Shown here piece by piece: positions 391-63,913 of a stretch of 64,000 nt of DNA. Source of the stretch: an uncultured Candidatus Saccharibacteria bacterium (GTDB lineage Bacteria; Patescibacteriota; Minisyncoccia; UBA6257; 2-01-FULL-56-20). The stretch spans positions 201,210 to 265,209 of the forward strand of contig CAYWDX010000001.1 of assembly GCA_964456235.1 (NCBI GenBank), written 5' to 3'. The notes below the pieces were generated by a model that saw only the letters and a program-made list of their open reading frames with translations, did not search any database and was not told where the DNA came from. Each line of letters begins with the position of its first letter. The stretch's first letter is position 1. The translations under genes and the position numbers were made by a program.

Positions 391-1071
391 CTAGCCGAAC
401 TGGTAGCCCCGACCCGGCAGCGTTCGGATCAACGTTGACCTGCCCGGCACGTTAATTTTGCTTCGCAGATTGTGGATATGCGCTTCGATCGTGTTCGAGA
501 ACGGATCGGCGTCGCCATCCCATACGTGTTCCAAGATGGCGCCACGCGAAACCACGCGGCTTTGGTGTTTCATGAGAAATTCGAGGAGTGAAAATTCTTT
601 TGGCGTGAGATCGATTTGTTGCTTGCCGCGATACACGGTGAAATTCGATCGGTCGAGTGTGATGCCGCCCGAGACCAGCTTGCTCGGTTCTATCCCGCGC
701 GGGCGGCGGAGCAATGCTCTCACTCGCGCAGAAACTTCCTGCAATGAATACGGCTTCGTGACGTAGTCGTCCGCGCCGCAATTCAACAATCCCACTTTTT
801 TATCGGTTTCCGACTGCGCACTTAAGATGAGAACCGGAACATGCATTTTATATTCGCGAAGCTCCGAACAAATTTCCGGGCCTTGTTTGCCGGGGAGCAT
901 ATTGTCGAGCAAGATCAGATCATAGTCAGTCGTGCGTGCGCGGTATGACGCCTTCACGCCGTCATGTTCAACATCCACGCTGTAGCGTTCCGCCTCGAGC
1001 TCGGCTTTTAATGCGGCGGCGGTTTCTTGGTCGTCCTCAACAATCAAAATGCGCATGAAGTTGGCTTTCAT
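391..1071 (-). CDS. Two-component response regulator, OmpR/PhoB family (receiver + winged-helix)
   Basis: MRILIVEDD ... DLILLD ... phospho-acceptor region, and a C-terminal winged-helix ending LPGRGYQF. An alternative ATG lies at 1053. No cognate kinase is adjacent. Confidence 0.85.
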   Translation of the reverse strand: MKANFMRILIVEDDQETAAALKAELEAERYSVDVEHDGVKASYRARTTDYDLILLDNMLPGKQGPEICSELREYKMHVPVLILSAQSETDKKVGLLNCGADDYVTKPYSLQEVSARVRALLRRPRGIEPSKLVSGGITLDRSNFTVYRGKQQIDLTPKEFSLLEFLMKHQSRVVSRGAILEHVWDGDADPFSNTIEAHIHNLRSKINVPGRSTLIRTLPGRGYQFG

Positions 1072-1359
1072 TATAGCCCTCGCGGCATATGTTTATCCAC
1101 AGAATAAGTTGGGTACGGAGTATACTGAAGATAGGCTTGATATTCAATCCAACAGGAGGCCTCCCATTGCGAAAGGTTGCCCGCTTCATCCGCAGATGTT
1201 CCTCCAAACGCATCACCAAAGATCGTCGCCTGAGGAGGTGATCCCTCGCTGAGCGCATCGTGGTTGCGCTCCTGGGCAGTCATATCGGCCCCCCGCCCGG
1301 ATCTTTAAGCGGGGGCTTTTCTTTTTTTGGCGGCGCCTCTATTATAAGCGCACCCATGG

Positions 1360-6619: not shown

Positions 6620-7119
6620 TTCTTCCTTTCGTAGACTTGGAACTCGTAGTCAACCGGATTTTTTTCGTCCCGCGAGTGCTTTTCAGAGTTGACGAGCTGC
6701 CAGTCGACATCGTTTAATGTTGGGAAAAATGTGTCGCCGGTCACCCGGTCGCGCACGCGCGTGAGATAAACCCGTTTCACGTGCGGGAGCGCCGTTTCAT
6801 AAACGCGCCCGCCGCCGATCACAAATATTTCCCCGCTGTCCCCGGCCAGCCGATTCTCCGCCGCGCGTATCGCATCCGAAAACGACTGCACCGCGATGCA
6901 TCCTTCCGCCTTCCACGCCGAATCCGTCGTTATCACAATGTTCACGCGGCCAGGCAGGGGTTTCCCGATCGATTCGAACGTTTTCCGCCCCATGATGACC
7001 GGGTGCCCCATCGTGAGCTCCTTGAAATGCTTGAGGTCGGCAGGAAGGTGCCAAGGGATTTTGCCGCCTGCACCGATCGCGCCGCCTTCATCAGTCGCAA
7101 CTATAATAGAGAGGTCCAT
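6616..7119 (-). CDS. folA: Dihydrofolate reductase
   Basis: 167 aa; MDLSIIVATDEGGAIGAGGKIPWHLPADLKHFKELTMGHPVIMGRKTFESIG matches the DHFR consensus. Convergent with and overlapping thyA by 4 nt. Confidence 0.9.
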   Translation of the reverse strand: MDLSIIVATDEGGAIGAGGKIPWHLPADLKHFKELTMGHPVIMGRKTFESIGKPLPGRVNIVITTDSAWKAEGCIAVQSFSDAIRAAENRLAGDSGEIFVIGGGRVYETALPHVKRVYLTRVRDRVTGDTFFPTLNDVDWQLVNSEKHSRDEKNPVDYEFQVYERKN

Positions 7120-7191
7120 CGGTATGATTATACACAGCTTTTCACGTCTTGCGCTTATGTTTGTCGAGGTGTTCTGCTAGAATCAAAGCAT

Positions 7192-8043
7192 ATGGGGACG
7201 CTCGAAAAGAAAACTCTTTGGTCAATCCTCGTCGGGGTTGTTATTCTCGGAGGTCTTTTAATCTATGTCTTCACCGGGAATCGTCACCCTGTCCAGAATG
7301 GCAATACCCAACCAACCTATGCGCCGAAGGGCGAGCTCGTTTCGGGTTTCCCGTCTAACTTGCTTCTCGATTCAAGCGCACCCATAACGCAGAGCTACTC
7401 CATGCATTACCCGTCGGGCGCCGTCCAGTATACCGCAGAATACCAGACGGCGCGCGATGCGGTCAGCGTGATCGCGGGGTACCAGACGCACCTCGGCGCC
7501 ATGGGCTGGAACGTGAGAATAAATTCGGCGGTGCAGACAAAGGCGATCGGCCTTTCGGGCGCTACCTCGACGGCATCAATTCTGGTTACTGCGGCACAAA
7601 TGCCACAAGGATCGGATGTGACGGTGAGCTACACGCTGAACGGCGCGAGTGATGCTAGCGTCGCGGGCAGCCCGCTTACTATAAAGAGCACTGACAACCT
7701 CTCGACAGTTCCAGCGCCGCTTACTGATCTCGCCGACTGGAGCCACGTTCATCCGTATGGCATCCAGACGCGTCAGCTCGCTGACGGTGGTACGCAGTAT
7801 CTCGCAAGCTGGAACACCGCGCATATGCCGCAGAATTATCAATCATTGAAAACGTACCTCACGGCCCAAACAAACTACGTACTCGTGCGGGATTCGTTTG
7901 ATGCGGCAAAAGGATTTTCAATGCATTTCACCCAGGGCTCTACGCTACTCGGCGTCATCGCGACGCCGATGCCAAAATCAGGATTTTTTACGATAACGTT
8001 TTCGCTCTACGAACCCGCTCACTCTCTATCATCAATGCCATGA
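7192..8043 (+). CDS. Hypothetical membrane-anchored/secreted protein
   Basis: N-terminal hydrophobic segment WSILVGVVILGGLLIYVF. The upstream part of ORF 6781..8043 is antisense to folA and therefore not coding. ATGA overlap with the next gene. Confidence 0.55.
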   Translation: MGTLEKKTLWSILVGVVILGGLLIYVFTGNRHPVQNGNTQPTYAPKGELVSGFPSNLLLDSSAPITQSYSMHYPSGAVQYTAEYQTARDAVSVIAGYQTHLGAMGWNVRINSAVQTKAIGLSGATSTASILVTAAQMPQGSDVTVSYTLNGASDASVAGSPLTIKSTDNLSTVPAPLTDLADWSHVHPYGIQTRQLADGGTQYLASWNTAHMPQNYQSLKTYLTAQTNYVLVRDSFDAAKGFSMHFTQGSTLLGVIATPMPKSGFFTITFSLYEPAHSLSSMP

Positions 8044-10721: not shown

Positions 10722-12587
10722 TTACTGGAAAGCGACGAGGGAACACTGGGCGTACATGCATACGCCAATGCGTCCGTCGTTCGCCGAAAAGAAGCCAGCA
10801 CCGAGGAGTGCGCTCGTCGCGGTGAGCGGCGTCGCAACTCCGTTCGCGTCCACCTTCACAAAACGCGTGAGGCGGGCATTCGTATCGGCGTAAGCGACGA
10901 TGAATACCTGATGCGTCTCATCCGCGGCGAGCCGAAATGGCACGCCGGGGACGAGGCCTTGCAGGTTCACCGTGCGCGTGACCGTACGCGAGGAGAGCGA
11001 CACCACCGCGAGGAGCTGGTCGAAGCTGCTCAACACGGCCGCGTTGCCCGATGACGCCCCCGCATTGATCGCCGCCACCTGCCATCCACCGCTCGTCGCG
11101 TTGGGCAGCTGGGAGGAGCGAGTGAATCCGGTAAGCGCCGTCGTACCTCGAAGCGCCATCCCCGCCGTGTTGAAAACATACAGCGCGGGCGGCGAATCGT
11201 CCTTCGCGTAAGAAACTACGTCGAGTTCCCCGCCAACCAAAGCCATCGCGAGCGACCAGGGGAGGTTCCCAGCGTTGGCAGAAGTCGGCACGAGGGTGGT
11301 TTGGCTTGGATCGAAACAGGTCACCGCATTGCTGTTTGGCTGCGTGATGCAGGCCTGCTTCGATTTCGCCGCTACTCCGAATGCCTCTGTCCCACTATTG
11401 AGGCCGGCGACGGGATTTCCGGTCGATGGGTTGATGACCACCGAAGGATGTCCGATCAACGTCTGAGCGGAAATCACATACCCGGTCACGTCATCAACCG
11501 CGATTGCTGAATTGCCTCCAGGAAGGAAGGTGCGGTTCAGGGTGCCATCTGCGTTAAAGTAGATCGCCCCTGCGCTGCTCCCACTAGCATTCCCTTTGGC
11601 GAATTGGAAGAAGGTGCCATTCGCTGGATTCTTCGTCGCCGTGTTTTGGTCGCCGAGAAGCCCAATCGAACTAGTATTCGAAGTCGCACCGTTTGGGTCG
11701 CTCACTGAAATGTCGATCCAGCCAGCGGCCTGCTGCGGAGTTCCGAATGGCAACCCGATTGCTATCGAGGTCGGGCTGACGGTTCCCATGAGCACCACAT
11801 CGCCGAATGAAACCGCTGGTGCTATGTGGACCGTTTGCCCGGCGGCGAACCCCGAGCCGTTGATGGTTACCCCAAGAGCGGCTGGAGCGCCCGCGACGGC
11901 GAAATAGACGGTCGTGCGATTCAGCGAGTTGATCTGGAGCGCCGTGATCGTTACGGTTGCCGTCGCGGACTTTGTTGAGTCAGCAACGGACGTCGCCGTC
12001 ACGAGCACTTGCTTTGCGTTCGATACCGCAGGCGCCGCGTAAAGACCCGACGAGTTCACCGTGCCAGTTGGGGTGGTGTCACCTTGCGCGGCGTTTCTCA
12101 CCGACCAGGTAACCGACGCGTTCGCACTATTCGTGACCGTAGCCGCGAATTGCTGCGAACCGTTCGATGGCACCGTCGCGCTCGTTGGCGAAACAGCGAC
12201 CGTGACGGGGTTGACCGCTACGGTTGCCGATCCCGACTTCGACGCATCCGCGACCGCGGTCGCCGTGATCGTGAAGGTCGTGGCCGTTGCAACCGATGGA
12301 GCCGTGTAAACGCCGCTCGCTGTGATCGCGCCGACGGTCGTGTTACCGCCCGCGACACTGTTCACCGACCAGGTGACCGCCGTGTTCGTTGAATTGGTTA
12401 CGGTTGCCGTGAACTGCTGCGTGGCCCCCGTGTTGATCGTCGTCGGCCCCGCTGGCGAAACCGATACCGTGATGATTGGCGTGATTTGGGCCGACGTGTT
12501 GCCACTCGCGCCACCACCGCCGCAGCCTGTCAAAATGAACAGGCAGGCGGCGATCGCGAGTATCGCATTTACCGGAAGCGTCTTCAT
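10722..12587 (-). CDS. Surface lipoprotein with tandem Ig-like repeats
   Basis: Lipobox LTGC after a signal peptide (MKTLPVNAILAIAACLFILTGCGGGG). Tandem ~95-aa repeats of the TATVTNS.N..VTWSV type, also visible as nucleotide-level repeats. Confidence 0.7.
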   Translation of the reverse strand: MKTLPVNAILAIAACLFILTGCGGGGASGNTSAQITPIITVSVSPAGPTTINTGATQQFTATVTNSTNTAVTWSVNSVAGGNTTVGAITASGVYTAPSVATATTFTITATAVADASKSGSATVAVNPVTVAVSPTSATVPSNGSQQFAATVTNSANASVTWSVRNAAQGDTTPTGTVNSSGLYAAPAVSNAKQVLVTATSVADSTKSATATVTITALQINSLNRTTVYFAVAGAPAALGVTINGSGFAAGQTVHIAPAVSFGDVVLMGTVSPTSIAIGLPFGTPQQAAGWIDISVSDPNGATSNTSSIGLLGDQNTATKNPANGTFFQFAKGNASGSSAGAIYFNADGTLNRTFLPGGNSAIAVDDVTGYVISAQTLIGHPSVVINPSTGNPVAGLNSGTEAFGVAAKSKQACITQPNSNAVTCFDPSQTTLVPTSANAGNLPWSLAMALVGGELDVVSYAKDDSPPALYVFNTAGMALRGTTALTGFTRSSQLPNATSGGWQVAAINAGASSGNAAVLSSFDQLLAVVSLSSRTVTRTVNLQGLVPGVPFRLAADETHQVFIVAYADTNARLTRFVKVDANGVATPLTATSALLGAGFFSANDGRIGVCMYAQCSLVAFQ

Positions 12588-31607: not shown

Positions 31608-32387
31608 ATGCCCAATAAATTACTCGGCCAACATTTTTTGAAGAATCCGCACGTGGCGCAAACCATAGTGCGCGCGCTTGACCCACGCGCGGGAGAAATA
31701 ATTTTTGAAATCGGTCCCGGCCATGGCGAACTCACCCTCGCGCTCGCCGAAGCGGCGAAAAATGCCGGCGCGAAAGTCGTCGCGATCGAAAAAGATCCCG
31801 CGCTCGCCGAAACACTTTCCGCGCGTATCGATCCAGACGTCGAAATCATTGCCGGCGATGCCCTCAAAATTTTGGCTGAAGAAATTTCAAAACGTGGCGC
31901 CGAAAATTTTAAAATCGCCGGGAATATTCCTTATTATTTGAGCGGCCACTTGCTGCGCACCATAAGCGAACTTCAGAACAAGCCGTCCCGCGTCATCTTC
32001 ACCGTACAAAAAGAAGTCGCCGAGCGCATCATCGCTGCGCCGGCAAAAATGAATCGGCTCGCCGCGAGTGTGCAGTTCTGGGCGACGCCAAAAATCATCG
32101 GGCGTATTCCAAAAGAGGATTTTGACCCGATGCCTCACGTGGATTCCGCGATTATCTCCCTTGATCGCGCCGAGCCGCGAGCCGCCCAGCCAGAAAAGTA
32201 TTATGAATTGGTTCGCGCAGTCTTTGCCCAGCCGCGGAAGACCATTTTCAACAATATCGCCAGCCATTTCAAGAACTTCACACGCCCCGAAATCGAAAAT
32301 CTGCTTGAAAAATGCGGCATCCAGCCTGGCGCGCGCCCTCAAAACTTATCCGTGAAGGACATCGTCTCGCTAGCCCAGATTTTTTAA
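31608..32387 (+). CDS. rsmA: 16S rRNA (adenine1518/1519-N6)-dimethyltransferase
   Basis: LGQHFL...EIGPGHGELT SAM motif and the typical KsgA length. Confidence 0.85.
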   Translation: MPNKLLGQHFLKNPHVAQTIVRALDPRAGEIIFEIGPGHGELTLALAEAAKNAGAKVVAIEKDPALAETLSARIDPDVEIIAGDALKILAEEISKRGAENFKIAGNIPYYLSGHLLRTISELQNKPSRVIFTVQKEVAERIIAAPAKMNRLAASVQFWATPKIIGRIPKEDFDPMPHVDSAIISLDRAEPRAAQPEKYYELVRAVFAQPRKTIFNNIASHFKNFTRPEIENLLEKCGIQPGARPQNLSVKDIVSLAQIF

Positions 32388-34548: not shown

Positions 34549-36099
34549 ATGCTGAAAAAACGACTGCCATTTATTCTTCTTGCCGGAATGGCGGCGGCGT
34601 TAGCGGCGGCTGCGCCGGCGCACTTCGCGCATGCCAGCTGGTTCGGCCTCGATACCATTGCCGGCGGGGTGATTGGTTATATCGCCTATGGACTTATCTA
34701 TATCATCGCGACCATCGCGGGGGTAGCGATTTCGATTATTACCTATCTCATCAGCATTCTTCTCCAGGTTAGCTCTAACGTCGTGAACACCGCAGCCGTG
34801 CAGGTTGGGTTTTCCGTGATGCTCGCGATCGCGAACCTTGGGTTTGTTCTTTTCATCATCATCATAGCGATCGCCACTATTCTGAAGAGGGAATCGTATG
34901 GAATGAAAAAATCGCTGTGGCGATTGGTCATCGCTGCCATACTCGTGAACTTCAGTCTCGTGATCGGGGGAGCGGTTATAAATTTTGCGAACATCATTAC
35001 CAACCAATTCTTGCAGCAACTTCCCGGCGGTGGAGGCAATAATGGGCCTACAACCTTCGCGCAAGAACTCGCTGGAGCTTTCGCGCCCCAAAAAGGACTT
35101 CTCGTACTTTCGAGCTCCGGGAATAATGTTGCCGGGAACATTGCGGGGTCAAACCTCGGAGACGTGAATGCCGGGAGTACTATCGCAAGCATGATCACCC
35201 CTGTCGTGAGCGTCTCTGCTGCTGCAGCTCTGCTTATCGCAATCATTATTACCCTCGCGGCATTTGCGACCATGTTGCTTATCCGATACGTGTATCTTTC
35301 TATACTCCTCATCGTGATGCCATTCGCTTGGCTCATGTGGGTATTTGAAGGGACGAAGGGACAATTCAAAAAGTGGTGGGATTCTTTCATTCGATGGTCG
35401 TTTTTTGCCCCTATTGTAGTATTTTTCCTTTGGCTTTCGATCGCGACGGCCCAAAAACTAAATACCAACAACAACGACAACCCGATAGGGTTTCTCGCCG
35501 GGACTAGTTATACCGCAAACACGTCGAATCCGATCACCGGGGCTCTCGGTTCAACGTTTGGATCTTTCGTTGCCGCCTTCGCCTCAACGTCGCTCCAAGC
35601 AGTGTTAGTTGTGGGGCTTGCGGTGGGCGGCATGATCGCGGCGAATAAGTTGAGTATCATGGGTGCGAAAAATGCTGTTGGCGCTATGGACGGTGGAGCG
35701 AAAGCTTTTAGAAATTATGTTGTAAAGCGGGGCAAAAGGGGAACGTTAACCGTTGCCCAAAAAACTATGGGTGGCGTAGCTAGGGTTGCAGCGCCTTCTC
35801 CTGGAGCACCGCCAAATGCATGGAATAGATTCCGAGGTAGTGTTGCGACGCGATTTTCTGGAGCCTCTGCTAACTTGGGTCAGGCTGCAACGAGTTCGAA
35901 TCTCAAAACTAAAGGTTTGGCTGCGACGGTCTGGGGTGGCATAAAGCAAGGGTCTGGATTATTTAAGGGCGCGAGCAAGAGCAGTAAGGATTGGGAATGC
36001 CAAGTTTGTCATAATGTTCAAAGAAGTACGATTAAGCCGACGACGGCGTGTCAAAATTGCCACTCTCCTGCCGCTCTAGCTAAATGGACTCAAATATAA
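34549..36099 (+). CDS. VirB6/TrbL-like polytopic membrane protein with C-terminal CxxC...CxxC
   Basis: Signal peptide, then at least 6 hydrophobic helices in the arrangement typical of TrbL/VirB6. C-terminal CQVCHN...CQNCHS. Confidence 0.6.
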   Translation: MLKKRLPFILLAGMAAALAAAAPAHFAHASWFGLDTIAGGVIGYIAYGLIYIIATIAGVAISIITYLISILLQVSSNVVNTAAVQVGFSVMLAIANLGFVLFIIIIAIATILKRESYGMKKSLWRLVIAAILVNFSLVIGGAVINFANIITNQFLQQLPGGGGNNGPTTFAQELAGAFAPQKGLLVLSSSGNNVAGNIAGSNLGDVNAGSTIASMITPVVSVSAAAALLIAIIITLAAFATMLLIRYVYLSILLIVMPFAWLMWVFEGTKGQFKKWWDSFIRWSFFAPIVVFFLWLSIATAQKLNTNNNDNPIGFLAGTSYTANTSNPITGALGSTFGSFVAAFASTSLQAVLVVGLAVGGMIAANKLSIMGAKNAVGAMDGGAKAFRNYVVKRGKRGTLTVAQKTMGGVARVAAPSPGAPPNAWNRFRGSVATRFSGASANLGQAATSSNLKTKGLAATVWGGIKQGSGLFKGASKSSKDWECQVCHNVQRSTIKPTTACQNCHSPAALAKWTQI

Positions 36100-37406: not shown

Positions 37407-37422
37407 AGTTATAATAGAGGTG

Positions 37423-37920
37423 ATGCAATATCAAGTGCCGCAATTTATCGAGACCGAAGACAAGATCGTGGGCCCCCTTACGCTCCGCCAGTTTATTTAT
37501 GTGGGCATTGGCGCCCTGCTTTCCGCCCTCCTTTATTTCATGGTCCAGACGTGGCTCTGGCTGATTCTCTCTATATTTATAGTAGGAATTGCTGTGGGGG
37601 TTGCTTTTGTGAAGGTTGAGGGCCGGGCGCTCGGCAATGTTATTCTTTCGGCGGCAAGCTTCTATTGGAACCCCCAGACCTACGTTTGGCAGGCGGCGCA
37701 TGCTGCAAAGGCTCCGAAATCCCAGGGAGACTCGGGGTTTGTTGCATCTCTCCAGAAGATCGCGGAGGGCGCGGCGCTTCGCAAGCACTGGGAAAGCCTG
37801 CAGACGGGGGAAAAGATGTCGGCTGAAAAGTTTGCCGAAAAGAAAATGAATGAGCGTTACGCTATCTTTCGCACGATCATGGGCGATCGTGAAGCGGCGC
37901 GGCGAGTGGATTACCGGTAA
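37423..37920 (+). CDS. PrgI-family (VirB3-like) small membrane protein
   Basis: MQYQVPQFIETEDKIVGPLTLRQFIYV followed by two TM helices, the typical PrgI-family N-terminus, located immediately upstream of virB4. Confidence 0.65.
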   Translation: MQYQVPQFIETEDKIVGPLTLRQFIYVGIGALLSALLYFMVQTWLWLILSIFIVGIAVGVAFVKVEGRALGNVILSAASFYWNPQTYVWQAAHAAKAPKSQGDSGFVASLQKIAEGAALRKHWESLQTGEKMSAEKFAEKKMNERYAIFRTIMGDREAARRVDYR

Positions 37921-37941: not shown

Positions 37942-38619
37942 ATGGCCACGAACCAAGCGGCGGGTAATTCATTGGATCTCGTGAACATTAAGGAGATCCG
38001 CGACAATACCATCATCCTTAAAGACGGTGGGATGAAGCAGATCGTGATGGTGGGCGGCGTGAATTTTGCTTTGAAATCCGAGGAGGAGCAGAACCTCATG
38101 GTGCAGGGATACCAAACGTTTCTGAACGGCATCGATTTCCCGCTCCAAGTCGTGGTGCACTCGCGCAAAGTGAATGTCGATAAATATATCGAGACGCTTC
38201 TCGAGCGCAAACAATCCGAGGAGTCGCCGCTCCTGCGCAACCAGATCGACGAATACGTGGAATTCGTGAAGGGGTTTGTCGAAAAAAATGCGATCATGGA
38301 AAAAAGTTTTCTCGTGGTCGTGCCATTTTACCCGACGATGGGTTTGCCGAGCGGATCATCGCTTACAAGATTCCTTCCGTTCGGGAAAAAATCGAAACCG
38401 GATGATGCCGCGAAGAAGAGCGCTGAAGAAAACGAGCGCGCGTTCAAAGAAAATTTGGCCCAGCTTGGCCAGCGCGTGACGCAGGTCGTGAACGGGCTTC
38501 TCGTCGTCGGCCTCGAGGCGACCGCGCTCGAAAACGATGCGCTCGTCGAGCTCCTCTATAACTTTTACAATCCCCAGACGGTCGAGCGAAAAGAAATTGC
38601 CGTGCCCAACGAACATTGA
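37942..38619 (+). CDS. virB4: VirB4/TraC-family ATPase, N-terminal domain (split gene or frameshift)
   Basis: 225 aa. Stop TGA at 38617..38619 overlaps the TTG/ATG start of the ATPase part in the -1 frame. Confidence 0.55.
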   Translation: MATNQAAGNSLDLVNIKEIRDNTIILKDGGMKQIVMVGGVNFALKSEEEQNLMVQGYQTFLNGIDFPLQVVVHSRKVNVDKYIETLLERKQSEESPLLRNQIDEYVEFVKGFVEKNAIMEKSFLVVVPFYPTMGLPSGSSLTRFLPFGKKSKPDDAAKKSAEENERAFKENLAQLGQRVTQVVNGLLVVGLEATALENDALVELLYNFYNPQTVERKEIAVPNEH

Positions 38620-40373
38620 TCTCGCGGAACATGCCTCCCGAACAAAAACCTGACAACTTCGACAAGATCAAGCAGATCATCGCACCGGCGGGGGCGCAGG
38701 TTTTCCCGAGCTATTTAAAAATTGGCGACAAACTCGCGAAAACGTTTTTCGTGTTTTCGTATCCGCGCTATCTCGCGACCGGATGGTTCGAGCCGCTCAT
38801 TAATCTGCCGAATTTGTTTGATGTTTCCATTTTCGTAAACCCGATCGACACGGGCACCGCGCTTAAAAATCTCCGCAAAAAAGCGGGCCAGCTCGAGTCG
38901 CAAATCATGGACGACCAGGAGAAGGGTTTGGTCCGCGACCCGATGCTTGAAACGGCGGTCAAGGATGTCGAAAATTTGCGCGACTCACTTCAGCAGTCGG
39001 AGGAGAAACTTTTTGACACCGGCGTTTACATCACGATTTACGCCGACAACGAAGAAGACCTCGCGCGCCTCGAGAGCAAACTCGTCACCATGATGGAGGC
39101 GAAGCTCATCTATTTGAAACCTGCGCTCTTTGAACAGTTGGAAGGGCTTTCGTCCATTTTGCCGCTCGGCGAGGACAAGCTACAGGTCTACACGCCGATG
39201 AACACCTCGCCGATCTCGTCATTCTTCCCGTTCGTTTCTGAAGATCTTTCCTCGAACCAGGGGATTATGTATGGCATCAACCTCCACAACAATAATTTGG
39301 TAATTTTCGATCGCTTCTCCCTCGAGAATGCAAACCAGGTAGTGTTCGCAAAGTCCGGCGCCGGGAAATCGTACACCACGAAACTGGAGATCATCCGCTC
39401 GCTCATGATGGGCGTCGACATGGTGCTCGTGATCGATCCGGAAAATGAATATGAGCGTCTTGCAAAAACATTCGGCGGGAGTATGTTCAATATTTCCCTT
39501 TCGTCGCACGAGCACATTAATCCGTTCGACCTCCCGCTCATCCCGGAAGGCGAAACGCCGTCCGATGTTTTGCGCTCGCATATCGTGACGATCACGTCGC
39601 TCATTAAATTGATGCTCGGCAAGGTGACGCCGGAGGAAGACGCGATCCTCGATCGCGCGATTACCGAAACCTACGCCTCGCGTGACATCGTGGTTGACGG
39701 CGACTTCGCCGGGAAAGAGCCGCCACTCTTGAGCGACCTTGAAACCGTGCTCCGCAATTTGGAGGGAGGCCGCGAGATGGCGGAAAAGCTTTACAAATAC
39801 ACCTCTGGCAGCTTCTCGGGCTTTTTGAACCAGTCCACGAATATCGACATCAACAATCGGCTGATCGTGTTTTCGATCCGCGATCTTGAAGAAGAACTGC
39901 GTCCGATCGGCATGTTTGTAGTACTGAACTTTATCTGGTCACTCATCCGCGCGAAACTCGCGAAGCGCCTGCTCTTCATTGATGAGGCGTGGATCATGAT
40001 GAAAAACGATGACAGCGCCACATTCTTGTTCGGCCTTGTGAAGCGCGCCCGCAAATATTTTTTGGGCGTTTCGACGATCACCCAAGACGTCGAAGATTTC
40101 TTACGGTCGCCCTACGGCCGCCCGATCATTACAAACTCCTCATTGCAGCTGTTGCTCAAGCAGGCGCCGGCGACGATCGATATCGTTGCAAAAGCGTTCG
40201 AGCTCACCGAGGCGGAAAAAAATTTTCTTTTGAGCGCCGAGGTGGGCACGGGAATTTTCTTTGCCGGCAAACGCCACGTCGCGATCCAAATTGTTCCGTC
40301 CTATTTCGAAGATCAGGTAATCACGACGAACCCCGAACAACTCCTTGCTGAAAAAGAGGGCCGGCTTAAATAA
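38616..40373 (+). CDS. virB4: VirB4/TraC/TrsE-family ATPase, C-terminal ATPase domain
   Basis: Walker A FAKSGAGKSYTT and Walker B LLFIDEAW. TTG at 38616 or ATG at 38631. Confidence 0.8.
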   Translation: MISRNMPPEQKPDNFDKIKQIIAPAGAQVFPSYLKIGDKLAKTFFVFSYPRYLATGWFEPLINLPNLFDVSIFVNPIDTGTALKNLRKKAGQLESQIMDDQEKGLVRDPMLETAVKDVENLRDSLQQSEEKLFDTGVYITIYADNEEDLARLESKLVTMMEAKLIYLKPALFEQLEGLSSILPLGEDKLQVYTPMNTSPISSFFPFVSEDLSSNQGIMYGINLHNNNLVIFDRFSLENANQVVFAKSGAGKSYTTKLEIIRSLMMGVDMVLVIDPENEYERLAKTFGGSMFNISLSSHEHINPFDLPLIPEGETPSDVLRSHIVTITSLIKLMLGKVTPEEDAILDRAITETYASRDIVVDGDFAGKEPPLLSDLETVLRNLEGGREMAEKLYKYTSGSFSGFLNQSTNIDINNRLIVFSIRDLEEELRPIGMFVVLNFIWSLIRAKLAKRLLFIDEAWIMMKNDDSATFLFGLVKRARKYFLGVSTITQDVEDFLRSPYGRPIITNSSLQLLLKQAPATIDIVAKAFELTEAEKNFLLSAEVGTGIFFAGKRHVAIQIVPSYFEDQVITTNPEQLLAEKEGRLK

Positions 40374-41104: not shown

Positions 41105-41812
41105 ATGAAGGCGCGTGTTCTCGGCACTTTTGCGCTGGCTGCCGTGTTTTTTATAAGCGGCGCGTTTGCGATGCCGGCGAGCGTCGAAGCGGTTGCCGGT
41201 CCGCAGGTTTATATTACTTGGCGCACCCTCGACGGCGTGGCGCCGGCGGGATACGCGGGGAAAATCCTTCCAAAAATTGGCTCGCAGGTGGCCGCATCAG
41301 TTGAAGTGCTCACCGCGAGTGGCCGCGTTGCCGATTTGCACAACCAAACTATTTATTGGTATTTGGATAACAGTTTTTTGGATGGCGGAACGGGAAAACA
41401 AACCATAACGTTCGGCGCGCCGGGTCATAACGAAATCATGTCGCTTCGCGCGGACATCCCGGGTTACCCGGGCGGGGAGTTAATCATGACGGCGCACATT
41501 CGCATGGTAAATCCAGAAGTCGTGATCGTCGCTCCCTACGCAAGCGGAATTTTTTCAGGAGATTCGGTTGCCGTGAAAGGCGTGCCGTATTTCTTTTCGA
41601 CCTCTCAATTGAATAGTCTTGTCTACGCGTGGTCGGTGAACGGCCAAACGGTGGCCGCGCAGGAAAATCCGCTCGACCTCGTCGTTAATTTGACCAATGG
41701 GACCGTGGCTGGATATTCTCTCGGAATCAATTTCTCGGCGCGGGTGAGCGGCGACCCGCTAACCAGCGCCTCGCAGAACATCACCCTCGCGAAAGCCGGC
41801 GCATCACAATGA
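41105..41812 (+). CDS. Hypothetical secreted protein
   Basis: Signal peptide MKARVLGTFALAAVFFISGAFA. Confidence 0.5.
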   Translation: MKARVLGTFALAAVFFISGAFAMPASVEAVAGPQVYITWRTLDGVAPAGYAGKILPKIGSQVAASVEVLTASGRVADLHNQTIYWYLDNSFLDGGTGKQTITFGAPGHNEIMSLRADIPGYPGGELIMTAHIRMVNPEVVIVAPYASGIFSGDSVAVKGVPYFFSTSQLNSLVYAWSVNGQTVAAQENPLDLVVNLTNGTVAGYSLGINFSARVSGDPLTSASQNITLAKAGASQ

Positions 41813-42363
41813 TTTTTTTATCAAAGGCGCTCGCGGCCGGCGTTAACATCAACCCCGACATCCCCGGCCTCACCCCCTCGACCAGCATCTCGGGCCTCAT
41901 CCAGAACTTCTACAGCTTTGCCCTCTTGATAGCCGGGGTCCTTGCCGTTGGCGCCATTGTGTATGGGGGGATGCGCTATGCCGTAGGGCATGGAAATCCC
42001 TCGTCTGAGAGTGAAGGAAAGAGCTGGATCGTCGGGGCCCTCTTGGGCCTCCTCCTCCTTGCCTCTGCCTATGTGATCCTCCATACCATCAACCCCGAGA
42101 TCACGAAGCTCTCGATCCCTGGTCTCCCCCCGCTTGACGCTGCCCCTACGGGGGAGGGGTTGGGGGGAGGGGCCCCGAGTAATATTTACACTTCTTCGCA
42201 CTCAAGCGATCCCGCGTGCCAGCAGCGTCAGGCAGGAACGTGCGTTTGGCTCCCGAATCGAGCGATGTCTTCCACATGCAGCGGCTATCAAAGTGTTTGG
42301 CCGGATGACCACTGTAACGATCCGCCCCCGCACCAGCAATGCGAGATATTTCATCAATGTTAA
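41809..42363 (+). CDS. VirB2/TrbC-like pilin candidate with Cys-rich C-terminal extension
   Basis: Leader plus two hydrophobic helices (GLIQNFYSFALLIAGVLAVGAIVYGG ... WIVGALLGLLLLASAYVILHTINP) in VirB2-type topology, then a 70-aa tail with 6 Cys. ATGA overlap with the upstream gene. Confidence 0.5.
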   Translation: MIFLSKALAAGVNINPDIPGLTPSTSISGLIQNFYSFALLIAGVLAVGAIVYGGMRYAVGHGNPSSESEGKSWIVGALLGLLLLASAYVILHTINPEITKLSIPGLPPLDAAPTGEGLGGGAPSNIYTSSHSSDPACQQRQAGTCVWLPNRAMSSTCSGYQSVWPDDHCNDPPPHQQCEIFHQC

Positions 42364-42372
42364 AATAAATCC

Positions 42373-43632
42373 ATGAGGCGCCTCTATATTATTCTCGCGA
42401 TCTTTGTGGTGATTATTCTTGGTGCGGTCAGTTATTTAGTTTTCTTCCGCGGATCAACTCAGCCAGGAACGGGGACGGCTCCAACCGGAAGCACTGGTTC
42501 GTTGCCTTCGGCTGGTGGCGCGGGCGGGGGCGCTGGCACGGGCGGGAACGGCGGGGCTGGTTCGCAAACGGGCAGTGGCGCGGGGGCGGGCAATCTTCCT
42601 GCGGCGGGCGGCGTGCAAGGGAGCACGAGCTTTGGCGTTGTGAGCGACCAGCCTGCGATTGATTATTTTGTTGATGTAAAAAATAACGTGACGATTATTG
42701 CGCCCAATGGCGAGATCAAATCGGTGGCTGGCGGGACAACGAAATCTCTGAACGCCGCAGGCGCGGAGAATATTTTGGCTTCCGGTTTCGCCTACAACGG
42801 AACGAAATTATTAGTAAATTTTGGCGACCGAACCAACCCGCAAACGAGCGTTTTTGACGTCTCCTCGACCGCCTGGACGCCGCTCGGCCTCGGCATCATC
42901 TCGCCGGTTTGGTCGCCAAGCGACATGCGGATCGCGTATCTCAAAAATAATTCTGATGGATCGGCAACGCTCTCCACGCTTGACCTTTCAAAAGCAACCA
43001 ACAAACCAGTCGCGCTGGTTACGGTGCATGCAGAAGACGTCACGCTCGCCTGGCCAAATAAAAATCAGATTATGTTGAGCGACAAGGGAAGCGCGTATGA
43101 AGAAGGTTCACCCCTCGTCTATGATCTCGTGCAAAAAACCCTGCTGCGTCCGATGGCGGCCGTTCACGGCTTTGCCGCAATTTGGAGCAATACGACGAAT
43201 ACTGCCGCGCTCACATTTTCGAGCGGGGCTGCGGCGCGTGGCGGCGACTTATCTCTCTGGACGAATAATCTTTCCTCATCCGAAAGCCTGACCATCCTCA
43301 CGCTCCCATCCAAGTGTGTATTTAATAGTGTGGTTGGGGTTGCTTCGGCCGGGACTTCGACGCCGGCTGCCGCGCCGTATCTTGCCCTGTATTGCGCAAT
43401 CCCACAAAACGCTTCTGCGCTCTCAAGCGCCGTATTGCCGGATGACTATAATCAGCAGGCGCTTTTCACCGTTGATTCGCTTTATAAAATCCGGACCGAC
43501 AACGGCGACGTTCAGACGCTGCTCACCCCCGCGCAGGCAGTTGATGCCACCAACCTCAAGGTTTTTGGGAAAACCCTCTTCTTTATTAACCGGTACGACA
43601 ATAAGGTCTACGCGCTCTCGCTCGGCGCCTAA
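42373..43632 (+). CDS. Hypothetical secreted protein (Gly-rich linker + probable beta-rich domain)
   Basis: N-terminal TM/signal, GAGGGAGTGGNGGAGSQTGSGAGAG linker, 300-aa C-terminal domain. Confidence 0.5.
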   Translation: MRRLYIILAIFVVIILGAVSYLVFFRGSTQPGTGTAPTGSTGSLPSAGGAGGGAGTGGNGGAGSQTGSGAGAGNLPAAGGVQGSTSFGVVSDQPAIDYFVDVKNNVTIIAPNGEIKSVAGGTTKSLNAAGAENILASGFAYNGTKLLVNFGDRTNPQTSVFDVSSTAWTPLGLGIISPVWSPSDMRIAYLKNNSDGSATLSTLDLSKATNKPVALVTVHAEDVTLAWPNKNQIMLSDKGSAYEEGSPLVYDLVQKTLLRPMAAVHGFAAIWSNTTNTAALTFSSGAAARGGDLSLWTNNLSSSESLTILTLPSKCVFNSVVGVASAGTSTPAAAPYLALYCAIPQNASALSSAVLPDDYNQQALFTVDSLYKIRTDNGDVQTLLTPAQAVDATNLKVFGKTLFFINRYDNKVYALSLGA

Positions 43633-44945: not shown

Positions 44946-45263
44946 TTATTTTACTTGATGCAGCGCCGCAAGCAATTTTTCGCGAAATTGTTTTTTGGTG
45001 AGGGCGTTCGCCTTCGGCGCGATGATCATGAGCAGGTCGCCGTAATTTTTTTTCGAAGTCCGGAGCGCCTCCCCGGCAAGCCGCCGAAAAAAATTTCTTT
45101 TAACGGCGCTTTTGTGGACCGCGGTGCCCACGATGATGCCGATGCGGTTCCTCCCGAGCTCATTCCCGCGCACCTTCAAAGAAAAAAATGGGTTGGCCAC
45201 GGACTGGTCCGGCCGCAGCCGAAAATTTCGTGCGGGCAGCCGCATGCGTGAGGGGATCGCCAC
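44946..45263 (-). CDS. rnpA: Ribonuclease P protein component
   Basis: RNR-type basic motif region (KSAVKRNFFRRLAGEALR) and expected size. Confidence 0.75.
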   Translation of the reverse strand: MAIPSRMRLPARNFRLRPDQSVANPFFSLKVRGNELGRNRIGIIVGTAVHKSAVKRNFFRRLAGEALRTSKKNYGDLLMIIAPKANALTKKQFREKLLAALHQVK

Positions 45264-46991: not shown

Positions 46992-48104
46992 ATGAAATTC
47001 GTCGCGATCCAATCAAACATCAAAGAAGCGATCAGTGTGATTGATCGCGCCGCCGGAGAAAATATTAACCTCCCCATTCTTAAGAATGTTTTAATAAAAA
47101 TTGAAAACAACCAGATTTTGTTTACCGCGACGAACCTTGAGGTCGCCGTGACTAGTAAGGTTTCGGGGAAGATCATCGAGGACGGGAAGATCACGGTTCC
47201 GCTGGGCACCCTTTCTAACCTCATCAGCAACATCCAGAGTGACCGCTTGAATTTTGGGAAGAAGGGGAACGCGCTTGAGATAAAAACCGACAATTACAGC
47301 GCCACCCTCCAGGGCCTCCCCGCCGAGGACTTCCCGGTCACGCCCGAGATCAAATCACCAAAAGGAAAAATTGAAATTAAGGGCGCTATTTTGAAAGAGG
47401 CGCTTCGCGAGACCATGGTGGCCTCGCAACTTTCTGAACTGCGTCCGGAATTAAATGCGGTGTTGTTTGATTTCACCATCGACAGCCTCAAGTTTGCCGC
47501 GACCGACGGGTTCCGTCTTGCCGAAAAAATGATTCCGCAAAATCTTTTTACCGCGAGCCACGAAGAACCCTTCCGCATCCTCGTCCCACTGAAGACAACC
47601 CAAGAAGTTCAGCGGATGGCGAAAGACGACGAGGCGATAACCATCCTTCATGACGAAAACCAAATCGTGTTTAAAACCGAACGCGTGGAATTAATTTCTC
47701 GGCTCACCGAGGGCGCATTCCCCGATTACTCGGCGCTCATCCCGAAAGAATTTTCGGCCGAGGTGATGGTTGATCGGGAAGAATTCGCGAATGCGATCCG
47801 GCTTGCGGGAATTTTCGGGCAAAAGAACAGCGAGGTGAAGATCGCCATCAATCCGTCGAAGAAAACGATGGAGGTGAGTTCGGCAGACCAGGCGCTTGGC
47901 GAGAACGCGTATTTACTCCCGGCAAAAATTAAGGGGGCGGCTGCGGAAACCTATTTCAATTGGCGTTATTTGGCAGACCCCATCAAAGTGGCTGGGAGCA
48001 GCGAACTTTTTATTGGGTTTCAAGAAGAAGCGAACCCGGCGCTCATCCGGGCGGTCAATGACAGCTCCTATTTCTATATTTTGAAGCCGATTTTGAAGTC
48101 CTAA
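46992..48104 (+). CDS. dnaN: DNA polymerase III beta sliding clamp
   Basis: 370 aa with three-domain beta-clamp pattern, immediately downstream of dnaA. Confidence 0.9.
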   Translation: MKFVAIQSNIKEAISVIDRAAGENINLPILKNVLIKIENNQILFTATNLEVAVTSKVSGKIIEDGKITVPLGTLSNLISNIQSDRLNFGKKGNALEIKTDNYSATLQGLPAEDFPVTPEIKSPKGKIEIKGAILKEALRETMVASQLSELRPELNAVLFDFTIDSLKFAATDGFRLAEKMIPQNLFTASHEEPFRILVPLKTTQEVQRMAKDDEAITILHDENQIVFKTERVELISRLTEGAFPDYSALIPKEFSAEVMVDREEFANAIRLAGIFGQKNSEVKIAINPSKKTMEVSSADQALGENAYLLPAKIKGAAAETYFNWRYLADPIKVAGSSELFIGFQEEANPALIRAVNDSSYFYILKPILKS

Positions 48105-61271: not shown

Positions 61272-61411
61272 GGAGGTGAGTATAGCGAGAATGCGCATAT
61301 TTTACAAGGGCGGCGAGGCCATCATTGACAATATAGTATTTTATAATGTATAATAAACCCGGTTATTCAATATCACCGCTTGCGAAAACCGAGCGAGAAA
61401 ACGAGGATTAT

Positions 61412-62056
61412 ATGGGACTCGCCATAACCGAGAAACAGAAAGCGCGCCTTTTCGACCTAGGCGTTTCTGTCATGGAGTTGACCCGCGACGGAAACCGTGA
61501 CTGCGACGAGGTGATCTGCGTGCTTCAGGCAATCAAGGATCACAAGGATTTCGCGGCGAAACTTCAGGCTCCCACCACGAAGCACCCCCAACCAACCCCG
61601 CCTCCACTAGCGATCGTGATCAACGCCAACCTCGACCCCACGATCCCGTCCGGTCTCTGCCTCACGGGCAAGGGAACCGAGCACCGCAAGATGGGCCAGG
61701 TCACGCTCGAGAAGCGCCCCGACGGGAAGCTCTACGCGAACGGCACGGAGGTCGTCCGCCACCGCGTGCCCGGACAGATGAACGGCACCATCCAGGGCCA
61801 CAAGCTCCGCAAGGAGCTGGAGGGGGTGCAGGTGCTGAACGCCTGCATCATGGACGCCTTGCTCGCCAACCCAGAGCTCATCCCTGACGAGTGGAAGACC
61901 GGATACACCTATTTCTGGGGAACCATCTTCCGCCGCGCGGACGGCAACCTGTGCGTCGGGTACCTGTGCTGGCACGACGACCGGTGGGACTGGGGCTACC
62001 GCTGGCTTGACGGCGTCTGGGGCGGTCAGAACCCGGCCGCGGCGCTCGCAAGTTAG
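61412..62056 (+). CDS. DGR target (variable) protein; C-terminal ~40 aa form the variable region
   Basis: The 3' 123 nt (61928..62050) are repeated at 62427..62549 with substitutions only at template adenines. Trp/Asp-rich C-terminus RADGNLCVGYLCWHDDRWDWGYRWLDGVWGGQNPAAALAS. Start could also be 61346. Confidence 0.7.
   Translation: MGLAITEKQKARLFDLGVSVMELTRDGNRDCDEVICVLQAIKDHKDFAAKLQAPTTKHPQPTPPPLAIVINANLDPTIPSGLCLTGKGTEHRKMGQVTLEKRPDGKLYANGTEVVRHRVPGQMNGTIQGHKLRKELEGVQVLNACIMDALLANPELIPDEWKTGYTYFWGTIFRRADGNLCVGYLCWHDDRWDWGYRWLDGVWGGQNPAAALAS
61928..62050 (+). repeat. DGR variable region (VR)
   Basis: 123-nt match to TR with 17 mismatches, all at TR adenine positions. The conserved GC-rich 3' segment CAGAACCCGGCCGCGGCGCTCGCA is shared with TR and is consistent with an IMH. 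Confidence 0.85.
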
Positions 62057-62123
62057 CTCTTTGGCATTGGGGCGGTTATCATTTTCTGATCCTCTGTCCC
62101 TTTGCTCTGCGCATTTTCTTTCT

Positions 62124-62163
62124 GCCCGTGCATGAACTTCGGTTCTGCACGGGCTTTGTTTTT
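62124..62163 (+). terminator. Rho-independent terminator after the DGR target gene
   Basis: GCCCGTGCA (13-nt loop) TGCACGGGC followed by TTTGTTTTT. Confidence 0.7.
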
Positions 62164-62426
62164 ACAGACAATATGTGTGGTAAAATTTTTATGGAATAAA
62201 GCTCAAAACAAGTCCGCGGCTATGGTTGCGGGCGGCTGAGTTCCAGTATCACTGGATGCGGAATGGCAACGGCTACGGCTTTTGCCAGAGCCATCCTTTA
62301 TCAGCTAAAAACGAAGATACTTGGTGCATTGCGCTGGGGGATTACCCAAAGCCAAGGGGATATTCCGAATGAGATTCAATCCAGAGAGTATTCAATGGAT
62401 GGTGGCGCAGATGGCGCGATGCACGA

Positions 62427-62549
62427 TTCCGCAACGCGGACGGCAACCTGTACGTCAAGTACCTGTACTGGAACGACGACCGGTGGAACTGGAACTACAA
62501 CTGGCTTGACAACGACTGGGACGATCAGAACCCGGCCGCGGCGCTCGCA
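62427..62549 (+). repeat. DGR template region (TR)
   Basis: Invariant, adenine-rich copy with AAC codons at the positions that vary in VR. Not in a Met-initiated ORF. Confidence 0.85.
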
Positions 62550-62569
62550 GCTCTCATCGTTCTCCCGCT

Positions 62570-62956
62570 TTATCTCGAGGCGGGAGTTTCTTTAGCGACC
62601 TGTCGCGCCCATCCACCGATTTGCTTGCCGATTTCGAAAAGTTTTTCTGAAAGTGCGATATACTTCTTCCCGTCGACAGCTTTTATTTCCCAAAGTATTT
62701 CAAGAAAGAATTTTGCTAGGTCGAGATGTCGGGCAGCTTGTTCGAGGTAGGACAATCGGTCGTCTTTATTGGCGAAGACAGCGCGATATATCTCTCCGGC
62801 AGCGTCTATGAGCGATGCGTCTATTTTTATACCAAGCGTATATCGAGCATCTCTTCGCACATGCGGTAAGAATTCATGCCAGATTTTGTATGCACCAATC
62901 AAATGTTGAATAATCGGGAGCGTGATGCGTTGGGGGGGGGGGGTTATTGGTCGCAT
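62570..62956 (-). CDS. avd: Avd-like accessory variability determinant (four-helix-bundle / 23S rRNA IVS-protein family)
   Basis: 128 aa. IIQHLIGAYKIWHEFLPHVRRDARYTLG ... LSEKLFEIGKQIGGWARQ matches the four-helix-bundle family consensus. Opposite strand to the RT and overlapping its 5' end. Confidence 0.65.
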   Translation of the reverse strand: MRPITPPPQRITLPIIQHLIGAYKIWHEFLPHVRRDARYTLGIKIDASLIDAAGEIYRAVFANKDDRLSYLEQAARHLDLAKFFLEILWEIKAVDGKKYIALSEKLFEIGKQIGGWARQVAKETPASR

Positions 62957-63913
62957 TTGGATTTTAAGAAAATTAGTTCGCCGGAAAATTTATTGAAGGC
63001 GTGGCAGGAATTCCTGCTCGGCAAGCGCAAAAAGCATGATGTTCAAGAATTTCAGCTGCGACTCATGGATAATATTCTAGCATTGCACGCGGATCTTGCG
63101 GATGGAACCTATCGGCACGGCGGCTACCGAGCATTTAATGTTTCGGATCCCAAGCCGCGCCACATCCACAAGGCTAGCGTCCGCGACCGTCTTTTACACC
63201 ACGCTATTTATAGAGAGCTGTACCCAGCCTATGATCGTCTCTTTATCTCTGATTCGTTCGCGTGCCGTAATAATAAAGGGATGCATGCGGCGGTCAATCG
63301 TTTTCGCTCATTCGCTTTTAAAGTGGGTCGAAATAATACCCGAACCTGCTGGGTTTTGAAATGCGACATCCGAAAATTTTTTGCGAATATTGAGCACGGG
63401 ATTCTCATGCATATGTTGCGGCAAAAAATCGCTGACCCACAATTATTGGAACTGCTCCACCGTATCATTGAGAGCTTTGAAACGGTGCCGGGCAAAGGGT
63501 TGCCTCTTGGTAACCTCACGTCACAACTTTTTGTGAATATTTATATGAATGAGTTTGACCAATTCATGAAACATAATCTTCGCGTTAAGCACTACGTCCG
63601 TTACGCTGATGATTTTGTGGTCTTATCGCCGAATCGCGAATGGTTGGAAATTATTCTGAAAGAAATGGAAATATTTTTGAAAGAAAGGCTGCGGCTCGAA
63701 TTGCATCCCGATAAAGTCTTCATTAAAACACTCGCCTCCGGTGTGGATTTTCTTGGTTGGGTCCATTTCCCCGACCACCGGGTTCTTCGTAGCGCAACGA
63801 AACGCCGGATGTTAAAAAGAATGTCCCTCCATCGAACGGCCGAAACGGTTGCTTCTTACCGTGGGCTCCTTAAGCATGGCAACACTAAAAAATTAAGCAT
63901 ATACTTGGAGTAA
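62876..63913 (+). CDS. DGR-type reverse transcriptase
   Basis: RT motifs including LPLGNLTSQLFVNIYMNEFD (the SQ signature of DGR RTs, versus SP in group II/retron RTs) and YADD. ~345 aa. Start uncertain because of a G12 tract at 62932..62943. Confidence 0.85.
   Translation: MPDFVCTNQMLNNRERDALGGGGYWSHLDFKKISSPENLLKAWQEFLLGKRKKHDVQEFQLRLMDNILALHADLADGTYRHGGYRAFNVSDPKPRHIHKASVRDRLLHHAIYRELYPAYDRLFISDSFACRNNKGMHAAVNRFRSFAFKVGRNNTRTCWVLKCDIRKFFANIEHGILMHMLRQKIADPQLLELLHRIIESFETVPGKGLPLGNLTSQLFVNIYMNEFDQFMKHNLRVKHYVRYADDFVVLSPNREWLEIILKEMEIFLKERLRLELHPDKVFIKTLASGVDFLGWVHFPDHRVLRSATKRRMLKRMSLHRTAETVASYRGLLKHGNTKKLSIYLE

Follow-up and report, generated by a model that had tools for sequence, protein, structure and literature searches.

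Patescibacteria carry type IV secretion systems (T4SSs) that the relevant passages of published accounts place near the replication origin and describe as having VirB2-like pilins and no relaxase (PMC12102498; PMC12857230; PMC10633639). One of these sources, in its sections on the subject, describes an essential pilin array in Ca. Southlakia epibionticum ML1 and reports the system to be essential for epibiotic growth in the sole species tested (PMC10633639); another, in the corresponding passages, leaves open both the role of the system and whether it builds a pilus (PMC12857230). Here we describe a pilin gene in a 64,000-nucleotide stretch of contig CAYWDX010000001.1 from an uncultured Candidatus Saccharibacteria bacterium; this whole stretch is called the window. 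The operon that holds the gene has the same PrgI/VirB3 and VirB4 partners as the Patescibacteria T4SS of Quiñonero-Coronel et al. 2025, likewise has no relaxase or coupling-protein gene nearby, and occupies the same site beside dnaA, dnaN, rnpA and ksgA (PMC12102498). Its pilin also falls, above cutoff, in the same Pfam family (PF18895) as the VirB2-like pilins of the Patescibacteria, or candidate phyla radiation (CPR). The pilins in the pertinent parts of the published descriptions are small hairpin proteins encoded in divergent tandem arrays, whereas the window operon has a single pilin with a 92-residue extension. A term search of the Patescibacteria T4SS literature found, in the text that it covered, no description of these pilins with Cys-rich modules at the C terminus or with fused enzymes.

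More distant relatives set the frame for this extension. Canonical VirB2 (T-pilus), TrbC (RP4) and TraA (F) pilins, represented by PF04956, resemble the window pilin in having a leader, two hydrophobic helices and a basic loop, and in being encoded with VirB3 and VirB4. Canonical VirB2/TrbC pilins lose their leader by cleavage, assemble into pili that contain bound phospholipid and, in some cases, are cyclised. In the F- and T-pilus both pilin termini lie outside, and a C-terminal addition would face the filament exterior. The window pilin differs in matching PF04956 only below threshold, in having no sequence-detectable relative in the PDB and in coming from a monoderm host. Mature canonical pilins carry no extra folded module, and the C-terminal residues of TrbC are removed rather than displayed; the canonical profiles cover no tail, as the original prediction had held for VirB2 and TrbC. 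The closest structural match to the predicted hairpin comes from archaeal conjugation-type (Ced-like) pili, namely that of A. pernix (8dfu), whose pilin differs in having no Cys-rich tail. Type IV pilins bear a D-region, a disulfide-stabilised and strain-variable C-terminal surface element that mediates adhesion. The analogy is functional only, since the D-region belongs to an unrelated family with another fold and another assembly machinery (type IV pilus rather than T4SS), and it is a single loop in a globular head, whereas the window module is separate and linker-tethered.

The hairpin and the six-cysteine module

The window gene is a T4SS-linked VirB2-like pilin of Patescibacteria (Minisyncoccia/Paceibacteria-type). 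Its parts, all on the plus strand, are as follows.

41809..42363, plus strand: pilin gene, ATG start, 184 codons and TAA stop, product identical to database protein P0001
41809..41841, plus strand: short N-terminal leader MIFLSKALAAG, aligned with the terminal part (…A-x-A) of cleavable signal peptides in longer homologues
41881..42084, plus strand: T4SS_pilin (PF18895) domain by Pfam profile match, residues 25-92, two transmembrane helices and a short charged loop
41974..42024, plus strand: inter-helix loop RYAVGHGNPSSESEGKS, predicted on the cytoplasmic side or, should a pilus assemble, facing its lumen
42085..42135, plus strand: post-helix-2 motif TINPEITKLSIPGLPPL, family consensus T-x-NP-x4-L-x2-P-x-LP-x-L
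42136..42195, plus strand: flexible linker rich in Gly, Pro and Ser DAAPTGEGLGGGAPSNIYTS, predicted local distance difference test (pLDDT) below 50
42196..42360, plus strand: six-Cys C-terminal module ('module B'), residues 130-184, S-x4-PAC-x7-C-x11-C-x11-C-x8-C-x5-C-end

The pilin family assignment rests on a PF18895 match of 40.1 bits against a cutoff of 26.6 (E 4e-10), and 14 of the 17 homologues, the query excluded, have a precomputed PF18895 domain too. The canonical TrbC/VirB2 profile PF04956 reaches 17.3 bits against a cutoff of 27.9 (E 0.0056); on such profile evidence the window pilin is related to canonical VirB2/TrbC at superfamily level only. Hydropathy maxima at residues 34-55 and 73-91 agree with AlphaFold2 helices at 27-59 and 64-93, predicted with pLDDT of about 70-77. 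In a Foldseek comparison the best PDB fold match of this hairpin was the Aeropyrum pernix conjugation pilus 8dfu, with a probability of 0.94 and a non-significant E of 1.1 (target-normalised template-modelling score 0.64, root-mean-square deviation 2.3 Å over 65 columns, identity 15%); a search of PDB sequences with the pilin profile returned no relevant relative. The hairpin contains no Cys and has 28 invariant positions across 18 sequences. The VirB2-type hairpin of the original prediction is thus borne out by profile, hydropathy, predicted helices and the surrounding T4SS genes, and the profile search led to a pilin family instead of an unrelated one.

Positive charge is concentrated between the helices: across the 18 homologues, the mean number of Lys and Arg residues is 2.6 in the loop, 0.2 before helix 1 and 0.7 after helix 2. 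By the positive-inside rule, the loop is therefore expected to be cytoplasmic and the termini to lie on the other side of the membrane; two hydrophobic helices linked by a short basic loop in this predicted orientation are compatible with a pilin hairpin. A classical cleavable signal peptide precedes the pilin domain in P0006, P0013, P0016, P0018 and the metagenomic locus L093, where it is complete (MKTALIIFAAVIIGFSLVSVTHA, followed by VNIS). The window pilin and many close relatives have a leader of only ~11 residues ending in an A-x-A-like motif, and this leader is presumably cleaved as well. In paralogous pilins of related genomes, wall-hydrolase-like domains occupy the position of the tail. 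Loop charge, homologue signal peptides, these hydrolase fusions and the parity of Cys residues described below together suggest that the tail lies outside the cytoplasm.

The reading frame is well bounded. The pilin ATG shares 4 nt with the stop codon of the upstream gene (ATGA overlap), through which the gene is translationally coupled to its neighbour; the downstream gene starts 9 nt past the pilin stop. No in-frame start codon was found 5' of the pilin ATG, and translating this frame further upstream yields nothing like a signal peptide. Two other open frames overlap the gene: an 80-aa Arg-rich frame at 42134..42376 on the plus strand, across the tail, and a 126-aa antisense frame at 41821-42201 on the minus strand. 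Both look like shadow open reading frames (ORFs) of GC-rich DNA, and neither was matched when pilin family proteins were searched against the window ORFs. A frameshift or artefact as the source of the tail was considered and rejected: no pilin query matched the frame at 42134..42376, and the tail frame is settled because the tail of L093 is homologous. Local repeats around the gene amount to short, chance-level matches.

The region past helix 2 measures 92 residues, longer than the ~70 first proposed, and consists of the 17-aa conserved motif, the ~20-aa Gly/Pro linker and the 55-aa Cys module. Tail-less orthologues terminate within or just past the motif. The linker, as far as 'GGGA', is common to the window pilin and its same-genome paralogue P0002. 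The six Cys of the tail stand at residues 137, 145, 157, 169, 178 and 184, so that the protein ends in Cys. An ORF with a six-Cys C-terminal tail had been predicted at this position and is confirmed; the proposed spacing is right for C-x5-C, but x10 and x9 were miscounts, the actual series being x7, x11, x11, x8 and x5. At the Cys frequency of 0.85% over the window's 61 ORFs, at least six Cys in 48 residues has a chance of 3.5e-6, which amounts to 0.06 such stretches expected in the whole window; the final 48 residues of the pilin are the sole stretch of that length, among these ORFs, to exceed four Cys. The module is predicted to be extracytoplasmic and to hold up to three disulfides.

A word-indexed search with the 84-aa tail returned zero candidates, and P0023 and P0024, which phmmer brought up as tail homologues, were set aside as repeat or compositional artefacts. 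Scanning metagenome contigs with the pilin alignment recovered L093, a match anchored by synteny that overturned the view of the tail as an orphan. Its pilin ORF (472..1170, 232 aa) lies directly 3' of a homologue of the secreted protein encoded upstream of the window pilin, and its last 55 residues align to window residues 130-184 without a gap and with 20 identities (36%); both tails have six Cys and terminate in 'QC-stop'. The Smith-Waterman score of 102 compares with 30±5.7 for shuffled sequences (maximum 65), and none of 20,000 shuffles reached it. A truncated copy with the first three Cys occurs in P0005/L063, whose score 35 of 20,000 shuffles reach. Module B is accordingly defined as a ~55-aa C-terminal unit of T4SS-linked pilins, comprising the window pilin and L093 and, in truncated form, P0005/L063, with the consensus NP-[AV]-C … AG-x0-1-C … W … TC-x-GY … W … C … PP … QQC-x5 (ending Q)-C-end. 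A distinct 4-Cys unit, C-x6-8-C-[PS]-x-G-Q-T-C-x9-10-C, stands ahead of it in L093 and P0005, and many orthologous tails contain units of similar form. The window tail had no significant match to profiles of four further tail classes: P0015-type peptidase-like, VanY-like, 'HFGG' type and the common 4-Cys unit. The retention of the whole six-Cys module in L093 at 36% identity indicates purifying selection on the complete unit; judged from these alignments, module B is genuine, selectively maintained and rare.

Tails and paralogues across the family

To place the module in its family, we compared 58 non-redundant T4SS-linked pilins with complete 3' ends. Cys residues follow the hairpin in 28 of them and are absent in 30, the Cys-less tails being mostly shorter than ~30 aa, with a few of up to ~60 aa. 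Their number is even in 27 of the 28 Cys-bearing tails, the lone exception being the truncated module of L063. Among 74 non-redundant Cys-rich pilin tails (at least 4 Cys) in the collected loci L001-L142, the last Cys lies no more than five residues from the C terminus in 65, compared with 32 expected, and 13 tails, among them those of the window protein and L093, end in Cys. Cytoplasmic proteins of the operon contain 0-1 Cys. A disulfide reading is favoured because even Cys parity and C-terminal Cys placement are found family-wide and the topology is outward; the tail Cys are thus probably paired in disulfides, which lends indirect support to the disulfide-rich tail of the original prediction. 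In the pertinent part of a published survey, an MdbA-like thiol-disulfide oxidoreductase and VKOR are enriched in CPR genomes (PMC6744442).

The tails themselves are mostly unalignable across genomes whose VirB4 proteins are 77-91% identical. The T4SS-linked tail of L012 shares one Cys module (E 1e-6) with the segment leading into a VanY-like fusion from another genome (L030). The tail had been called unusual, and it is so in comparison with textbook VirB2, but not within the Patescibacteria clade, where about half of the T4SS-linked pilins have Cys-bearing tails. Cys-rich pilin tails are common in this lineage, and a description of them was not found in the portions of the literature on these T4SSs that were searched.

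Most related genomes have a second pilin locus, in which the hairpin and a Gly/Pro linker are followed by a peptidoglycan-hydrolase-like domain (L037 from 6013, L004 from 569, L001 from 6001, L002 from 4337 and L027 from 6031; also P0002). The SLT_3 lysozyme-like fusion in L037 scores 38.9 bits against a cutoff of 27. A VanY-like fusion (24 bits, cutoff 25) and a CHAP-like fusion (20.5 bits, cutoff 26) both stay below cutoff, and other second-locus fusions carry Cys/His-rich enzyme-like domains. Such enzyme-fused pilins could supply the VirB1 function, which is reportedly missing from most of these genomes. A third, divergent and short pilin type sits just 5' of the enzyme-fused pilins (L001 from 5731, L002 from 4021, L006 from 5971, L008 from 5962, L022 from 5992, L048 from 5926 and L060 from 6058). 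Cys residues precede its helix 1, three of them in the examples read, within the motif …C…C-x-[NDS]-[LVI]-CD[LI]I, and a single Cys lies near the end, in GGFG-x2-3-C-x-[VI]-Q-stop. A disulfide could staple its N and C termini together, in a manner reminiscent of the head-to-tail cyclisation of T- and RP4-pilins.

Within a genome, paralogous hairpins are strikingly alike. The second pilin of the window's own genome, P0002 (283 aa, encoded outside the window), has a hairpin 86% identical to that of the window pilin, and either is at most 70% identical to the pilin of any other genome. In 13 of 19 two-locus genomes the paralogue hairpins are closer to each other than to any foreign pilin, with up to 100% identity, and yet the tails of same-genome paralogues are unrelated or differ (for example L012/L022, L029/L048, L045/L049 and P0001/P0002). 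This homogenisation suggests gene conversion or constraints of co-assembly.

The tail of P0002 groups by alignment with SLT_3-type tails and has their catalytic motifs; P0002 itself has no Pfam SLT_3 match. AlphaFold2 modelling of this tail, in which the pairing of its first four Cys was sought, gave pLDDT below 50, and a homologue search with it returned zero matches. The BLASTP alignment of P0001 with P0002 extends across the linker and on over the first four Cys, whose x7, x11, x11 spacing is the same in both, as far as a 'CN' just before the 'ES' of P0002. Membership of SLT_3 (PF18896) was taken to mean a profile match together with a catalytic Glu-Ser followed by G-[LF]-[FW]-Q-[IV]-N. The window tail has no Pfam match and stops before the position of the ES motif, and the resemblance between the two tails is probably secondary.

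Readings of the tail

We give somewhat more credence than doubt to a reading in which the window protein is a T4SS-linked VirB2-like pilin with a linker-tethered, outward-facing module of three disulfides, probably a contact or specificity element. The hairpin would insert in the membrane with its basic loop inside and both termini outside, and would be the unit that polymerises into a pilus or conduit, as in other T4SSs. Past the motif and the ~20-residue Gly/Pro linker, the 55-residue module would most likely form three disulfides, the last of which would lock the very C terminus, so that each pilin copy would hold a small, protease-resistant knob tethered outside. A tip module had been proposed originally; no tip marker is present, and the knob would be displayed along the filament or over the cell surface rather than at the tip only, because every pilin copy encodes the tail. 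The module would be one of a large, fast-turning-over set of interchangeable C-terminal modules, in which T4SS-linked copies are tail-less or bear small disulfide-rich units, one to several in number, and second-locus paralogues have peptidoglycan-hydrolase-like domains. Its most likely role would be contact with a host cell or surface, as an adhesion or specificity determinant. Both retention of the tail in the mature pilin and polymerisation are points that we infer.

Several observations weigh against this favoured reading. A classical Sec signal would need a longer leader. In the tail, the synonymous-codon signal is weak, at the 14th percentile of in-frame windows, and a second frame is also open. 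AlphaFold2 places moderate confidence in the hairpin but not in the tail, for which pLDDT is below 50 and there is no confident three-dimensional model; the tail has no Pfam match, and a module-B profile search found no PDB relative. With residues 125-184 as query, an exhaustive phmmer search of 1.84 billion representatives retrieved the query itself and otherwise just two spurious matches; only two homologues of the module were found, with no further members among the 142 collected loci. No disulfide-forming enzyme (DsbA, MdbA or VKOR) was found in the 64-kb window by a Pfam scan of about 50 ORFs. Assigning the tail an adhesive function is pure conjecture on our part. Finally, pilin polymerisation in monoderm Patescibacteria is unproven and figures only as a hypothesis in the passages of the published account that deal with it (PMC12857230).

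A broader proposal, which we regard as tentative, treats the VirB2-like hairpin as a universal display scaffold. Paralogues kept compatible by gene conversion would co-assemble in one T4SS filament, studded on its outside with tethered hydrolases and with rapidly swapped, disulfide-rich host-specificity knobs such as the six-Cys module; the SLT_3-, VanY- and CHAP-like hydrolases would stand in for the missing VirB1 and open the host wall, and the window tail would be a host-range determinant of an epibiotic parasite.

Alternatively, the hairpin might be only a membrane anchor that does not polymerise, the tail then forming a knob on the cell surface. Enzyme domains of 150-300 aa on paralogue hairpins are indeed hard to fit on every subunit of a tight filament, and the relevant sections of two accounts treat Gram-positive-type T4SSs as normally lacking pili and the pili of Patescibacteria as hypothetical only (PMC12857230; PMC10633639). 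We nevertheless consider a mere anchor unlikely: the 28 invariant hairpin positions exceed what a simple anchor needs, the within-genome homogenisation (13 of 19 genomes; 86% as against at most 70%) fits subunits of one lattice, and the gene lies within the T4SS operon in all syntenic genomes.

Less probable is a tail that serves as a C-terminal pro-region, cut off during maturation and either discarded or released as a small Cys-rich peptide. There is a precedent of sorts, as the C terminus of RP4 TrbC is removed before cyclisation, and the motif NP-x4-L-x2-P-x-LP-x-L, standing exactly where tail-less orthologues end and followed by a flexible linker, would be a plausible processing site; half of the orthologues, moreover, function without a tail. 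However, neither the operon nor the window showed a TraF-like peptidase or another dedicated one, and wall-hydrolase fusions at the tail position argue for tethering, although release would be possible for them too.

The six Cys and four His of the tail might instead bind a metal (Zn, Cu or Fe), as the original prediction had allowed. The final 17 residues read HC-x5-H-x2-C-x3-H-x-C, His is enriched (4 in 54 residues), and anoxic settings, which are less favourable to disulfides, are home to many Patescibacteria. We think this very improbable: the tail has no CxxC or CxxH pairs and does not qualify as a zinc-ribbon or Cys-His module, it matches no metal-binding family in Pfam, L093 conserves the six Cys but not the His, the topology is extracytoplasmic, and even Cys parity with a C-terminal Cys lock fits structural disulfides. 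Least credible of all is that the tail is a functionless, decaying remnant of the SLT_3-type domain of P0002, cut just before the catalytic Glu-Ser: the BLASTP alignment, the four coincident Cys in one register (0.4% of shuffles), the gene conversion suggested by the 86% identity of the paralogue pilin domains and the weak codon signal are outweighed by a score of 1.9 bits for the window tail with a profile of 13 SLT-type tails (equalled by 15% of shuffles), by a Smith-Waterman score with P0002 that 18% of shuffles reach and that is not significant, by the lack of any SLT trace downstream in any frame, and by the independent metagenome pilin L093, where the six-Cys module is retained in full, at 36% identity and ending on the same C-terminal residue.

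The T4SS operon, its surroundings and significance

The favoured reading of the protein as a T4SS pilin draws on its genomic setting. The pilin is gene 9 of a ten-gene plus-strand block that encodes, in order, a 692-aa protein (weakly PKD-like), 516-aa and 418-aa proteins, a PrgI/VirB3-like protein, a 225-aa protein, a VirB4-like ATPase, a 235-aa membrane protein, a 235-aa signal-peptide protein, the pilin and a 419-aa protein. The neighbours that define the locus are listed below.

31608-32387: ksgA, upstream of the operon
37420..37920, plus strand: PrgI/VirB3-like gene (PF12666, E 4.3e-10), syntenic in about 29 related loci
38616..40373, plus strand: VirB4-like T4SS ATPase (PF19044 TraG P-loop, 1.1e-25; AAA_10), 66-91% identical in syntenic loci
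41105..41812, plus strand: 235-aa signal-peptide protein directly 5' of the pilin, conserved in syntenic loci
42373..43632, plus strand: 419-aa membrane-anchored protein directly 3' of the pilin, conserved in syntenic loci
44946-45263: rnpA, between the operon and dnaA
45450..46901, plus strand: dnaA, followed by dnaN at 46992-48104

The span from the 418-aa to the 419-aa protein is syntenic in about 29 loci of metagenome-assembled genomes of Minisyncoccia/Paceibacterota type, and the pilin lies inside the T4SS operon in all syntenic genomes. R3H, yidC, rnpA, dnaA and dnaN follow the operon, with yidC and rnpA between it and dnaA, which is ~3 kb from the pilin. With dnaA and dnaN as neighbours, the operon adjoins the replication origin region. 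No relaxase or coupling-protein (T4CP) family was detected among the ~50 larger window ORFs scanned. The locus thus shows what marks a Patescibacteria T4SS, with a pilin near virB4 and PrgI/VirB3, close to dnaA, and neither relaxase nor T4CP. The other ~40 scanned ORFs comprise housekeeping genes, a type IV pilus ATPase, PBP1 and a retroelement.

Some further features of the window are recorded here in their own right. The 516-aa operon membrane protein (34549-36099) ends in CQVC-x13-CQNC, a zinc-ribbon-like CxxC pair, and its sole Pfam match is a weak one to cytochrome c7. An 862-aa ORF at 8040-10628 contains 22 Cys and has no Pfam match, nor do the ORFs beside it at 6781-8043 and 10722-12587. 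A diversity-generating retroelement at 61346-63913 includes a reverse transcriptase (62876-63910; PF00078, E 3.3e-24) and a 123-nt template repeat (62427-62549) that is 86% identical to 61928-62050, the 3' end of an ORF at 61346..62053 encoding 236 aa with 6 Cys. All mismatches of the repeat fall at adenines of the template copy, the classic signature of adenine mutagenesis.

For annotation, the pattern described here means that PF18895 proteins longer than ~110 aa deserve inspection for cargo domains. Taken alone, the gene is a modest curiosity; what deserves following is the pattern that it exposed across the family. The tail may help a Patescibacteria cell to hold on to its host, and if the pilin routinely bears outward modules, these would offer testable handles on how ultra-small cells recognise and open their hosts.

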